Made by a program: the position numbers | In this document: piece after piece, positions 28,101 through 34,100 of the stretch | Numbering within the stretch: position 1 is the stretch's first letter | How the letters are laid out: every line of letters starts with the position of its first letter | DNA from: a virus | Lineage: Duplodnaviria; Heunggongvirae; Uroviricota; Caudoviricetes | DNA length: 64,000 nt | Virus record (IMG/VR): IMGVR_UViG_2939521961_000011 | Reading direction: 5' to 3' (one strand)

Positions 28101-31100
28101 TCGCTCTTGAGCAAAAAGGGTCTGGGAATTTCTCAGCCTGGGTCATTGAAGCCTGCCGTCGGAGACTAACGTCAGAAAAGAGAGCATATACATCAATCCA
28201 AAGTGATGATGGATGAACATCCCGGTTTCTTCCACCATCGCACCGGAAAAGCGACTATGAGGGTAACCCTGCGTCTGTCAGCACAGTAAAACCCGGTGTG
28301 CATCGTTTTTGATTATTCCCGCACACTCACGCAGAAGGAATTCCCCGTCGGGCTACGGTCATGGTTAATGCGGGAATACGGCGACGATACAGCGCATAAT
28401 GTGTCAGGCTTGAATACCTTTATCGAATCCCGGTAATAAAAACTGTCCCTGTCTCTCCAGACGTTCCAGCTTTGCAAGCAATTGAGGTTTTTTCGTTCTC
28501 CCCCAGCGATTGAGCAGACGGCCTGACATGCTGGCGACATCCTTCTCTTTCATGTACTCCAGCATTACGGCGTTACGTTCTGCTTCATAACTTTCGCTGT
28601 ACTTACGGAGTTCTGCTGACATCCAGTTAAACGCATTGATATAGGCTTCTTTAACAGCATCGGCTTTTGCCCCGTTAAATCCCATAACCAGCATAACGAA
28701 GCCACTAAAGTCCATGCGGTAGTAAATCTGTTTCTTGTCAAAAATACCTAAGTCATTGATTTTCTCGACGGCCCAAAAATGGGTTGTCGAGAATTCCTCA
28801 GAACATCTCAAACATTTAATAGCCCTAATCACATGCTGATGGCGTTTACCAAATGCCCTGGCAATCTGGAAGGTGTCAGTTACCGGTTGACCTTCTGCTG
28901 CGGTAACTAACTGGCGAAAGTCGAAGTCATGATTCGCAATTAATTCATTCATGGCGTTGCCTGCTTCTTTGAAATGAACCTTTGCCGCACAGGAAACCAG
29001 CCCACCGAGGCTCGCCAGCACTAACTGGTATCCTCAAAGGCCCATTCCAAAGGGTCAGGTTCGGTGTTTATTGTGCGCTGCGGTGCGCGGTGAAATACCG
29101 GTACAAAAATGCCCCGCATCTGCGAGGCATTTTCCTGAAAGTCACTTGTTAAATTTCAGTGAAATTAAAATTATTTTAAGCACTGCGTCCTGATGTATTC
29201 CTGCAGGTAGTTAACCTGCGCGGTTATCTTGTCGATTCCACCTCGGAGACGGTAATAATTGAGTTCAGCATCTGATGTAAGTCCTGGGCTTTCTCCATCG
29301 CCCATGCTGCTGGCTCCGGTCGTTGACTTTGCACAGGTGGCGGAGACTTGCAGGCGCTTACGCCCAGCAGAAACATCAGCACGGAGACTTTCGATAGTCG
29401 CATTAGCATCAGCAAGCTCCTTTGTGTATCTGGCGTCAAGTTCTGCTACATCACGTTGCCGCTTCTGCATATCAGCGATGATGGATGTGGCTTTATCGCG
29501 CTGCTCTTTGTAGGCGATGGCGTTATCACGGTAATGATTAACAGCCCATGACTGGCAGGCGATAATGCAGATAACCAGAGCGGAGATAATAACGGTTACC
29601 CTGCTCATTGTTGCCCCCACAAACAGACTTCACGCTCAATCTCGCGGCGAGTCATCAGCCCTTTCCATTGCTTACCGCCAGCGTATGTCCAGCGCCGTAG
29701 CTGATCACATGCGCCTTTGATATCGCCCTGGTTTATTTTGCGAAGAAGCGTCGATGTTCTGAAATTGCCAGCGCCCACGTTGTAAACGAACGAGTAAAGA
29801 GCGCCGCGCGTTGTTTCCGGTATATCGACGTTGATGTACGGGTTAATTTGTCTGGCGACCGTGGCAAGGTCTTTATTCAGGAGGGCTTTGCATTCTGCTT
29901 CGGTATACGTTTTACCGGGCATGATGTCTTTTCCGGTGTGTCCGTGACATACAGTCCATACGCCAACGATATCTTTGTATGGTATGTAGCTGACACCTTC
30001 CAGACCATCGTTACCACCTGGACCAGTGATGAGCACAGACGCTATGGCAACAGCCCCACCACCAATAGCAGCTGCAACAGCCTTGCGTAATGACGGCGAC
30101 ATTATTCACCTCTCGCAGCCTTACGCTTATCTTCTTTAATCTTGAAATAAAGATTTGTCAGATACGTCAGCAGGCCAAACAGCAGACTTCCCAGCACACC
30201 TATTGCCACCCACTGGGACGGAGAGACTTTGTCCAGCAGCTGCAGTAACCAGTATCCCGTCCCCACCGCTGACGTGGTGTATGACACACCTGTTGTGATT
30301 TTTTCCATCTGATGTATGTCTCCGTCACCGCCGACAGAAAATGAAAGTAAAGAAAAACAAAAAAGCCGCCAGTGTCACCCACTGACGGCCAACGCCGGGA
30401 GCCGTGATTATGGCATTCAGGCTCTGCTAAAAATGCCAGATAACATTCCGGCCTCCCCTGATTCAGGTTATAAATGACACAATATCTTGACAACATCCGT
30501 CACTGTCTGTCAGAAAATGTACTGCCATATAGAAGCAACATGTGAAGTACATCTATCCTTTTGAGCCAGCACCTCTCCACCGAAAGTCAGTGCTGGCTGT
30601 TTTTTTCCTTAATAAGGCATCTGTAACTGAAACAATCCGCATATTGATAATATATTGACAGGCATCATTGCTGTCTGTGAAAAATAAGTCTCTACAAACA
30701 TATAAGGCCTTTTAGCCAGCGTCTTCTTTTTCAGGTCAGTCGCTGGCTTTTTTTATTATGCTGCCGGTGCATTTATCTCCAGCATCAGACTTTCTATCTC
30801 AACGCCATACGCTGCATTTTTTGTAACATCCGTCAGCGTCAGCGCATTCAGTCCCAGTGTCAGACTGTCTTTTATAACCTGGAATGCCGGGCCAGCCACT
30901 CCATTCAGTTTCGGAGTAACCGTGGCACTGCCGGCGGTGAACACCAGCTCCAGCGTCTGCCAGTCGTTACCGTAATCGCCGAACTCCCCCAGCTTCGTGT
31001 TTCCGGCTTTCCTGTGATGCATCAGATTCACTCTGCCGTCAGTGGTCTGAGTGAAGTACGACATCAGGAACGGATTACCGGTACCCGTCATCGCCACACC

Positions 31101-34100
31101 ATCAGGAACGGGAGCATCCGTATACAGATAAATCCCCAGCCCGAACTGATTGTTGGTCAGTGCGCCTGACAGGCGGAACTTACAGGTCAGTCTGCCGCCC
31201 TGTGTCAGCAGGGTAATTGCGTCATCCACCGGATGCGTCAGGGACCAGGTTTTATTGCTCTGCTTGGTGATCTTAAATACACCATCTGACAACTGAATTC
31301 CGCCATCCTTAATGCTCCAGCCCTGCGCAGCAGCCTCTCCGGCTGCCGGCAGCAGGGAGATTGTGCGAACGGACGTATCTGCAGACGGACCCGATGGCGT
31401 GTTGCCGCCGGGCGAGGGTTTGATTTCCGGTGCCTTACCACTGATGAAGGCGGAGGTGCGCCCGGCTGCGTTCAGAATAGCGGTTGCCAGACGATCCGGA
31501 ATAATGCTCCTGCGCGCCCATGAACTGAAATGTGTCGGGCGGTTTGATGATACCTGGTTTCCATTCGTTCTCGATGCCGCACCGTAATATCCTGATGCCG
31601 GAATATCCGGATCTTCTGCCGGCGCGTTAGTGGCGGTATTGACACCGTTACCGTCTGTCATGAAGGGCACAAAATAAACGCCCTCACTCTCCCTGTTTTT
31701 ATACCCGCCGTACACGGTGTCGTACTGGGTAGCGTATGTATTTTTCCAGTAATACGTCGTGTCACCACAAATCCACGGCACATCTGCAGCACTGCCACCA
31801 TGGCACTGCGCGTTAAACACGGAGAGGTCAGCACGAAACTGTGTCAGCATGGCTGTAAACAGCGCAGGTTGCTGTGCGTGGGTGGCGGCGCTCATGTCAA
31901 ACTCTCCCTGCATCCAGCACACCGCCAGCAACACATTTTTCGGGTTCTTCTGTAATGCAGCTTTAGTGCGCGCAATCAGGTCCTGATATAACGGTTTACC
32001 CACACCCCAGCGTGCCGAATCCTGGCTGGCCCCCGTGTCCGCACTGAATGTCCCCTCCGCGCCCTGGGTGAATGCCGAACCACCACGACAGCATGGTACC
32101 AGCAGGATCCCCGCGTTATTCGGGATATACGGGAGCAGTTTTTTGGCAATATGTAAGCCCTGGCCGACACAGCCGTACTGCCCTTTGCTCAGGTCTGCCT
32201 TCGGATGATTCAGCGTACTCATATCCTGCACATCATGCAGGCAGTGGTCGGCCGGAATAATATCGTTATATCTGCATGCAGCCCCACCCGGCGTAACTGT
32301 ACTGCGGCGCGCCAGCTGTTTAATGCGCGGATCCGGAGCATCGTATTAATCCGGCAGCGGAAGCCCTTCACCGTAAGCCATGGCATTGGACTGCCCGGCC
32401 AGTACGATGACGTAGTACCAATCCGGCTCAGTTGCACCACTGACCACCACATCACCTTCTGCTGTAATCGCCTGCATCAGGGTATAAGGGGTTATGGCCA
32501 CCGGACTACCAAACGGCTGCCAGCCCTCTTTCAGTTTGTGTGTCAGCTTTTCCGCAAGGTCTGACGGCGACGCCGCCCTGACAACATCATAATGTTTAAT
32601 CGACATCGAATTTCTCCCGTGTACAGGAACAGAGTTAAAAAGCCGGAACCGGAATCAAATTACAGGATGGCCATCTGCCAGTGGCTGGTCGTAAAAAAAA
32701 GGCCACGCCATGCGCAGCCGGAAATAAAGGGATAACGATGATAGTTTGAGAAAAACAGAAACAACACTTTTGCGGCAAAGCATGGTGCCGGGTGCCTCCC
32801 GGTGAATTCAGTATCAGCACCTGAATCCGCGATTATCCCATATACCTGGTTGCTGATCGCCCCTCCGCACAGGGGGATTCACCATGCAGTAGTATTTTTA
32901 ATAAACAGCAAATAAAAAAATCAAGCATTATGCAGGCTGTTTCTTTTTATCACCGGCCACAGCAATACCACAATGCCGCAGACCAGCACCCCATCCGCCA
33001 GCACCGACATGATTCTGCTGGTGAAATCCACCATCACCACCAGAAACAGCAGGAGTGCAGCCACAGCCAGGCGCAGTTTTACCGTCACTGGTGATTCTCC
33101 AGACGAAGACCCAGAACACCGGCAATCTCTTCCAGCACCTTGCGCTCTTCCGGCTCAATTTCGCCGTCTGCCTCCGCAATGGCCACCGCCACATCCAGCA
33201 CATCTTCCGCTTCACGCGTATCGTGTTTCACATCTTCAATTTCACGCAATGCCGCTCGACGACCAATTTTAAAGTTCGTATCCAGCTGACCGATAATGGT
33301 TGCGCTAATCGCATTAATTTCTGACGTAAACGCGGACAACGCAGGCTGGTTACGCAAGATCTGCTCGATCTTCGCTTTCTCTGAAGCCTCACATTCACCA
33401 TCTGCATAGGCCACCAGATAGGCAGCATTAATAACCGCCTGTGCCAGATCACGTTTCTCAAACTTTTTAATTTCCACTGCCGCTCGGCGGGCTTTTTTAC
33501 CAAAAATACCAAACATCGTGACGTTCCTTTGGGTGGGTGAGCCAACGCCCGGGAGCGATCTGCCCACAGAGAAAGTCACACTGACCACTCCGTAAGCTCA
33601 CCCCCGAAAGGCTCTGTGGTTGATATGCGCCGGGCGTGGCGCGGATACAAAAAAGGCCGCCAATAGCGACCTCAGTTACGGGATTATTCTGGGGTTAAAC
33701 GACTGTTACTCCCCCCAGACAAAATCATCACTTCCTGTTCGATGCGAGCCATAGTGAACCTCGTACTTATCTCCCATCTTTCTTGCTTCCGTTTCTGCGT
33801 CTTCCTCTGTCGCAAAAACCCCAACAAGATGCCAGGGCGAGCTTCTTACCACAGCCCAACCTTTAACCCATCCTTTGTTGTCCTTATCTTCCATTAACAC
33901 TTCAGAAACAAACATATTTATCTCCTTGTGGGTACCCAGAGATATTTTATGATTGCTCCCGGTCAGATCAATAAAGTGGCTTCAATTTTGCCTTAATGAT
34001 TGAGGTGTACTGGCAATAGCGGACACTACCATTTGTTCTTTTTTTAAGCAGCCATCTGATGATATTTTTCCCTGAAGGCTGCCGGGGAGATATTCCCCAG

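Follow-up and report, generated by a model that had tools for sequence, protein, structure and literature searches.

The gene studied here lies in a window of 64,000 nt (IMG/VR virus record IMGVR_UViG_2939521961_000011) and belongs to the nanS-p sialate O-acetylesterase genes of E. coli prophages; it is interrupted by an in-frame stop codon. The question raised by this locus is whether the gene has been inactivated by a nonsense mutation or whether the deposited sequence contains an error, and these two alternatives, put forward in the first-pass annotation, proved to be the correct pair to consider. Re-reading the layout on the minus strand bore out the proposed split by a single TAA at 32346-32348. 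An ATG at 32606, preceded by GGGAG at 32618-32614, opens a frame of 86 codons (32606-32349; translation MSIKHYDVV...YYVIVLAGQSNAMAYGEGLPLPD) that is closed by the TAA at 32348-32346, and past this stop the frame continues for 529 more sense codons to a natural stop, also TAA, at 30758-30756 (Table 1). The downstream piece had been described as a 530-codon ORF in the same frame; frame and length hold if the final stop is counted, but the piece is an open frame with no start of its own at the junction. The earliest in-frame starts after the stop are a GTG at codon 126 (32231) and, nine bases on, an ATG at codon 129. On the source record CP027572.1 an 86-aa product, which carries PF08410, and a 488-aa product are called.

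Table 1. Features of the interrupted gene and of its surroundings, in window coordinates.
Feature	Position	Strand	Remarks
Lysozyme RrrD	29605-30102	-	Same late operon; lysis genes together 29605-30308
Class II holin	30102-30308	-	Directly downstream, same late operon; identical annotated genes in relatives
Same-frame remainder, 529 sense codons and natural TAA	30756-32345	-	Greater part of the SASA esterase fold, plus the lectin-like domain at the C-terminus
C-terminal lectin-like jelly-roll domain (DUF6645), aa 421-613	30768-31346	-	6YP6 alignment; Pfam
Esterase domain (SASA / NanS-like), aa 59-379, broken at aa 87	31470-32432	-	3PT5 alignment; Pfam SASA
Catalytic His359 codon CAT, in RPTHFSS	31530-31532	-	Aligns to 3PT5 chain residue 312
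N-terminal fragment ORF, 86 codons and TAA	32346-32606	-	Whole DUF1737 (aa 4-50), linker, first esterase-fold strand with SGNH block I (GQSN)
Premature ochre stop TAA	32346-32348	-	Next base T, giving the context TAA-T
Catalytic nucleophile Ser73 codon TCC, in GQSN	32388-32390	-	Aligns to 3PT5 chain residue 30
IS600	33999-35264		Upstream in the late operon, between tRNA genes and TerB
Prophage tRNA cluster: Arg-UCU, Arg-UCG, CAU tRNA	35550-35799	-	None a suppressor

When the stop is read through, the translation is a 616-aa NanS-p with the three-domain architecture of that family, i.e. DUF1737, a SASA/NanS-like esterase and, at the C-terminus, a lectin-like domain. The Pfam matches on this translation, namely DUF1737 (PF08410, aa 4-50), SASA (PF03629, aa 66-262) and DUF6645 (PF20350, aa 467-577), each exceed the gathering thresholds, while aa 59-379 match the NanS/YjhS structure PDB 3PT5 (E 1e-121) and aa 421-613 the NanS-p C-terminal domain PDB 6YP6 (E 1e-29). 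The identification as a nanS-p-type sialate O-acetylesterase gene was thus upheld. Both the SGNH-type catalytic Ser (GQSN) and His are present, aligned with residues 30 and 312 of the 3PT5 chain, which we take to be native Ser19 and His301 (Rangarajan et al. 2011), in agreement with the chain offsets. They are found in different ORFs, Ser73 in the first fragment and His359 in the second, so that the stop does part the catalytic serine block from the remainder, as had been noted. The break falls inside the esterase fold, 14 residues past the nucleophile, and does not coincide with a domain boundary; the uninterrupted frame of about 65 kDa seen in the NanS-p family is absent here owing to the TAA at codon 87. 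Since the stop splits Ser73 from His359, neither product should be able to act as an esterase, and the copy is, judging from its sequence, a pseudogene or null allele of the NanS-p family.

Comparison with intact alleles revealed the base responsible. The closest ones, encoding WP_032325211.1 (SASA family carbohydrate esterase), are carried by six complete O26-type genomes (E. coli O26 RM10386, 2010C_5028 and four others), where they occupy the same place in the prophage, with TerB/DUF3927 on one side and the holin on the other, and they match the window at all but one of 2001 nt. As intact 616-aa homologues lie this close, the two pieces are evidently one gene and not chance neighbours. The single difference is at 32347 (minus-strand A, plus-strand T), where the intact alleles have TCA (Ser87) and an uninterrupted frame of 616 aa, whereas the window has TAA; three intact alleles were compared, the nearest included, and all differ from the window at this site. 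Among 109 homologues with the motif, codon 87 encodes Ser in 56 and Thr in 53, and nothing else.

A search of 5,426 complete E. coli genomes, with 4,589 copies in all, gave no exact 81-mer match to the TAA allele, and zero matches were obtained in viral, metagenome and species-representative collections. Within the collections scanned it is known only from the source record, where window position 32347 corresponds to about CP027572.1:2,776,367 by arithmetic from the matched range. When the 86-aa product was looked up by exact match, eight contigs were obtained. Seven of them are draft contigs and were rejected as further carriers: they break off 258-259 nt into the gene, which is 252 nt past its last difference from a near-identical paralogue (gene nt 7). 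Their identical "86-aa products" are contig-end artefacts (an assembler k-mer effect), with no branch at the SNP. A look-up of limited reach yielded no Logan or SRA-derived contig with the 86-aa product; the paralogues break short-read contigs.

An allele present in one assembly only is also what a consensus error would look like. If the deposited A were a base-calling or polishing mistake, the true codon in the strain would be TCA (Ser87), and its 616-aa NanS-p would be intact. At least 120 viral contigs contain the wild-type 38-mer, and the RefSeq complete genomes that were searched do not include the source assembly, GCA_003018515.1. Furthermore, the family is a multi-copy one in which a paralogue is 99.4% identical, and in such a setting reads can be mis-assigned during polishing. 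However, this paralogue, which is intact in RM10386, has C at the middle base of codon 87, and no known paralogue has A at the site, hence mis-mapped paralogue reads do not provide an explanation. Given that all 109 homologues encode Ser or Thr at this codon, a paralogue as donor of the A, either by gene conversion or by mis-polishing, was rejected. Long-read consensus errors are mostly indels, and the local assembly shows no indels relative to its relatives across more than 45 kb. In particular, window positions 1-20000 differ from strain UTAK-23 by two substitutions, both in the insertion sequence ISEc22, with no indels; positions 24764-34000 differ from strain 2010C_5028 solely at 32347; and positions 35265-46865 show three mismatches and no gaps against strain 7_26_9A. 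A low-quality, indel-ridden assembly therefore finds no local support, and the lack of indel discrepancies with independent assemblies over at least 45 kb speaks against a consensus error.

A second private substitution points in the same direction. It lies at 48865, is likewise G-to-T on the plus strand and is synonymous. Of the candidate private differences, which also include 7040 and 7347 inside ISEc22, 32347 and 48865 were confirmed as private against all 5,426 genomes; differences at 20287-21741, which appeared private against seven comparison loci, were discarded after exact matches were found in other genomes. Such a silent change is what would be expected of ordinary point mutation of one class and not of the indel-type error of long reads. 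Because the surrounding assembly looks clean and the other private SNP is of the same class and silent, we believe that this indirect evidence leans toward a real, strain-private nonsense mutation that created a null allele (probability of roughly 0.7); a consensus error is clearly the less probable explanation, though one to be taken seriously. A literature search on the source accession and sister strains yielded nothing on the sequencing method. It is also conceivable that the isolate has a mutator past of the oxidative-damage (mutY/mutM) type, of which the two private G-to-T SNPs would be traces, an idea which, even when pooled with that of a functional DUF1737 protein considered below, appears very improbable.

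For a real nonsense mutation, the simplest course of events would be a single G:C-to-T:A transversion turning codon 87 from TCA (Ser) into TAA. Translation should then end after 86 residues, with DUF1737 and Ser73 kept and the rest of the fold and His359 missing, and a downstream product re-initiated at codon 126 or 129 would lack the nucleophile. The mutation is private to the isolate and is probably recent, under selection that may be relaxed because the lineage carries many nanS-p paralogues, the relatives having 7-13 matching nanS-p places per genome. NanS-p esterases allow EHEC to use O-acetylated sialic acids from mucus, and since these strains carry many paralogues the loss of one copy should have little phenotypic effect.

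It could be argued that the split is tolerated or even programmed, the stop being read through or recoded, or the fragments reassembling, with esterase activity kept. Nothing positive was found for this, the preserved downstream frame being expected of any recent nonsense mutation. In contrast to what programmed readthrough would imply, the stop is conserved in no homologue (0 of 4,589 copies; Ser/Thr in 109/109). A suppressor tRNA was sought and none was found within the window, including the prophage tRNA cluster. In addition, TAA-T is a strong terminator context, UAA followed by U being the most efficient termination signal in E. coli, and the break lies within the esterase fold, close to the nucleophile, and not at a domain boundary. 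We thus consider an active split enzyme extremely unlikely.

A partial function is somewhat easier to envisage, in that the 86-aa product may have lost the esterase and yet persist as a stand-alone DUF1737 protein. The domain is complete in the fragment, and over its first 34 residues the protein is highly conserved with that of the Min27/933W type. In phi24B, DUF1737 was reported to bind the capsid as a decoration module, released from NanS-p by cleavage after about residue 57, and single-domain DUF1737 proteins account for 2,528 of about 3,000 (10.64898/2026.04.10.717836). However, the private status of the mutation gives no sign of selection, and a conserved separate small DUF1737 gene was not what we observed: the 86-aa ORF occurs in one assembly and ends inside the esterase fold. 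The prophage head, moreover, is of the lambda type, with a gpD-like decoration protein, a gpE-like major capsid protein, an S49 protease and a portal, and a phi24B-type capsid is absent. The putative anchor loop is three residues shorter here, and a broken esterase fold adds about 35 residues to the fragment. A stand-alone role is consequently doubtful, and the specific proposal that a real nonsense mutation yields a DUF1737 protein still able to bind capsids or otherwise function shares the very low credence given above jointly to it and to a mutator history. If true, the locus would capture the process by which esterase fusions give rise to the single-domain DUF1737 genes that are so abundant.

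Among known relatives, the NanS-p proteins of the Stx phages 933W (L0105), Min27 and phi24B (vb_24B_21/gp84; 6YP6) share the three-domain architecture and the late-operon position before the lysis genes, that of Min27 being 53% identical overall to the window protein. In these podovirus-type phages the gene is intact (645 aa) and directly follows stx, whereas the window copy is truncated, has a shorter linker from DUF1737 to the esterase and belongs to a prophage of the lambda type that lacks stx. Chromosomal NanS (YjhS; 3PT5) resembles the esterase core at aa 59-379, including the GQSN Ser and the His of the HFSS motif, but it has neither DUF1737 nor the lectin-like domain, and it is not encoded by a prophage. 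Disruption of nanS-p as such is already known. IS-interrupted alleles have been described, for example with the C-terminal region 'CTR3' in O157 Stx2a phages (PMC10462455), and in these, as here, one nanS-p copy is inactivated in a genome with several; the mechanism in the window gene, however, is a nonsense substitution at codon 87 and not an IS insertion or frameshift. Disrupted copies were found at 23 of 64 IMG/VR loci. The present case is accordingly unremarkable: a redundant gene with a private null allele or, possibly, with an error in the consensus. Its value for annotation is that what CP027572.1 shows as an 86-aa 'DUF1737 protein' and a 488-aa 'SASA/DUF6645 protein' are the two halves of one nonsense-disrupted gene.

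Regarding the genomic context, the gene sits in the late operon of a lambdoid prophage, with the Q antiterminator/tRNA region on one side and the holin-lysozyme-Rz lysis genes on the other, which is the location expected of nanS-p (after Q and the tRNA genes, before holin/endolysin/Rz). No stx gene is present in the Q-to-S interval of the prophage, and the host prophage is lambda-like, stx-less and of O26-type E. coli (GenBank CP027572.1), the genome itself being of the Shiga-toxin type. Expression of the downstream lysis genes is probably unaffected by the premature stop, because Q-modified late transcription resists Rho-dependent polarity. The IS600 insertion upstream is a second sign of decay of this prophage. 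Finally, the CAU tRNA of the cluster was assigned to Met by ARAGORN and to Ile by RefSeq.

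The nanS-p sialate O-acetylesterase gene belongs to the late region of a prophage of lambdoid type and is divided into two parts that share one frame. Reading of the minus-strand frame revealed no start codon at the junction of the downstream part, the first in-frame starts being GTG at codon 126 and ATG at codon 129, and the gene caller gives two products, of 86 and 488 aa, for the disrupted gene. This reading agrees with the first-pass annotation in coordinates, frame relationship and quoted motif. When codon 87 is read through, the 616-aa protein carries three Pfam families, all scored over the curated cut-offs of the families. 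In tblastn its first 187 residues matched 351 phage records, mostly Stx-converting phages, with Stx1a phages as the best matches (98.9%), while Min27/933W-type NanS-p is 53% identical over the length of the protein. The label "nanS-p-like" is therefore right, and the Pfam domains and structural alignments also agree with it.

Features of the nanS-p gene, its product and the surrounding prophage (window positions, or residues of the 616-aa protein)
Feature	Position	Strand	Detail
N-terminal ORF	ATG 32606 to TAA 32348-32346	minus	86 residues, ending ...YYVIVLAGQSNAMAYGEGLPLPD
GGGAG	32618-32614	minus	precedes ATG 32606 of the 86-residue ORF
Downstream remainder	after 32346, ends TAA 30758-30756	minus	same frame; 529 uninterrupted sense codons
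DUF1737	aa 4-50		Pfam
SASA	aa 66-262		Pfam
DUF6645	aa 467-577		Pfam
NanS/YjhS-like region	aa 59-379		aligned to E. coli NanS/YjhS, PDB 3PT5 (E 1.4e-121)
Lectin-like region	aa 421-613		aligned to NanS-p C-terminal lectin-like domain, PDB 6YP6 (E 1.1e-29)
Class II holin	30102-30308	minus
Lysozyme	29605-30102	minus
Three tRNA genes	35550-35799
IS600	33999-35264		in late operon, inside 74-aa hypothetical gene, between tRNA cluster and TerB
ISEc22 (IS66-family)	~6083-8418		prophage tail region, between lom and J tail genes

Megablast of a 2,001-nt region against 5,426 complete RefSeq E. coli genomes returned no genome with zero mismatches and six with one (bit score 3690, equivalent to one mismatch); the annotation of these six gives an intact CDS of 1,851 nt for the gene (WP_032325211.1). 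Direct comparison placed the mismatch at 32347, where the minus strand has A in the window and C in the relatives, so that TCA (Ser87) became TAA. The sense codon to be expected at this position, which the first-pass annotation had proposed to look up in intact homologues, is thus TCA in the nearest alleles, and across the 109 motif-bearing sequences among 120 cluster representatives from a protein search the equivalent residue is Ser (56/109) or Thr (53/109) and no other.

The TAA allele appears to be confined to a single chromosome. It was not found in complete genomes with an 81-nt query that had the stop at its centre (4,589 copies in 1,376 genomes, best 80/81); the exact 38-mer with TAA had no match in metagenome contigs or IMG/VR, and a 26-mer with TAA had none in species-representative genomes. 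At least 120 IMG/VR contigs matched the same 38-mer with TCA, which served as positive control. An exact look-up of the 86-aa product returned one complete chromosome, the E. coli record CP027572.1 (GCA_003018515.1); a 20-kb stretch of this record occurs unchanged in the window, which identifies it as the source. It also returned seven short draft contigs from NCBI assemblies (L006-L012), which were rejected as carriers, since they break off at ...CCGGAT(T), 258-259 nt into the gene, and lack the stop. A near-identical intact paralogue in O26 strain RM10386 (1,840/1,851 identical, 99.4%) has its only upstream differences at gene nt 4, 6 and 7, and the contig ends therefore fall 252 nt beyond the last of these differences. 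The ends are an assembler k-mer effect, by chance one base before the SNP, and since they mimic the 86-aa product, exact-protein look-ups can simulate a shared truncation allele.

We believe that the TAA is a real mutation, with a probability of about 0.7, and most likely a recent loss-of-function mutation. A consensus error is possible but less likely. Against a real mutation stand the occurrence of the allele in one assembly only and the absence of that assembly from the RefSeq complete genomes. No paralogue carries A at this base, and gene conversion or mis-polishing with paralogue reads was thus rejected as a source of the TAA. Moreover, this part of the assembly is in very close agreement with independent ones: between window 1-20000 and UTAK-23 there are two substitutions (7040 and 7347, both within ISEc22) and no indels, 24764-34000 differs from 2010C_5028 only at 32347, and 35265-46865 differs from 7_26_9A by three mismatches without gaps. 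Indels make up most long-read consensus errors, and these segments show none. A further substitution, at 48865, is shared by none of the 5,426 genomes; it is a synonymous G-to-T change on the plus strand (GCG to GCT, Ala564) in the prophage exonuclease gene, and the nonsense SNP has the same class and strand. Two private changes of one class, one silent and one nonsense, resemble ordinary point mutation, and the pair is possibly an oxidative-damage signature. Four other apparently private positions had exact matches in other genomes and were private only against the small comparison set. Stop codons are created by ~3.4% of all possible single substitutions in the gene and by 5.7% of G:C-to-T:A changes, and a nonsense change is therefore unremarkable under either hypothesis.

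Such an allele is not novel in kind. Of the 64 IMG/VR loci that have the wild-type 38-mer and are long enough to hold the complete gene, 41 show a 616-617-aa frame; the other 23 are disrupted, by 1-nt indels or, in three cases, by insertions of ~1.3-2.3 kb. Some of these 23 will be draft errors; nanS-p copies that are broken, or that contain draft errors, are frequent. In O157 Stx2a phages, an IS-interrupted C-terminal region has been described (PMC10462455). The gene is a well-known prophage gene with high redundancy, and its TAA version (Ser87 to ochre) is a nonsense allele found as a singleton.

Regarding the enzyme, the putative nucleophile Ser73 (codon 32390-32388) and putative catalytic His359 (codon 31532-31530) aligned to residues 30 and 312 of the 3PT5 chain, which we take to be native Ser19 and His301 of NanS (Rangarajan et al. 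2011). The TAA lies between them, 14 residues past the nucleophile and within the esterase fold, and the first-pass interpretation, either a pseudogene in which the nucleophile block is cut from the rest of the enzyme or a sequencing error, holds. The 86-aa product would have the Ser without the fold, and a product re-initiated at codon 126 or 129 fold remnants and the His without the Ser; judged from sequence, this copy is expected to have no esterase activity. The stop is unlikely to be read through, because none of the tRNA genes in the window is a suppressor and, of the E. coli stop contexts, UAA-U is the strongest. On general grounds the stop probably has a negligible polar effect on the lysis genes downstream, since Q-modified late transcription resists Rho. 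The phenotypic effect is expected to be small, given that relatives have 7-13 matching nanS-p copies per genome, one of them the 99.4% identical paralogue, and that EHEC genomes have multiple functional alleles each, according to work as cited in PMC10462455.

The fragment could also keep a function of its own. In phi24B NanS-p, DUF1737 (residues 2-57) is reported to be a capsid-decorating module that is cleaved off the esterase, and most DUF1737 proteins are reported to have a single-domain architecture (preprint 10.64898/2026.04.10.717836). The 86-aa fragment keeps the whole domain; however, the allele is private, the head genes of the prophage are lambda-type, and the putative anchor loop lacks three residues relative to Min27/933W-type NanS-p, which makes a retained decorating role very improbable.

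On the minus strand the gene order is Q-type antiterminator, three tRNA genes, small ORFs, TerB, DUF3927, nanS-p, class II holin, lysozyme and Rz, based on the window ORFs and annotations of near-identical relatives; the Q-to-S interval contains no stx gene. The CAU-anticodon tRNA (35724-35799) is called Met by ARAGORN and tRNA-Ile in RefSeq for the identical gene in relatives; with it the cluster matches the Ile/Arg/Arg set usual in lambdoid prophages. The prophage also bears two IS elements (IS600 and ISEc22). Strain 7_26_9A has an oppositely oriented IS600 at a distance of 151 bp, a pattern suggestive of a local inversion or of independent insertions. In addition, the prophage is a mosaic: window 1-20000 (tail end), which is almost identical to its counterpart, and 18033-51460 (head, late and early regions) match different prophages, ~300 kb apart in relatives such as 10159, suggesting inter-prophage recombination or rearrangement in the strain. 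In window 51310-64000 a second prophage has its end (DinI-like gene, nleC effector, tail fibre, lom, J), which adjoins the integrase end of the first, so that the two are in tandem, and the other window end carries the nleG7 effector gene (1888-2538) and the chromosomal genes yebW and pphA.
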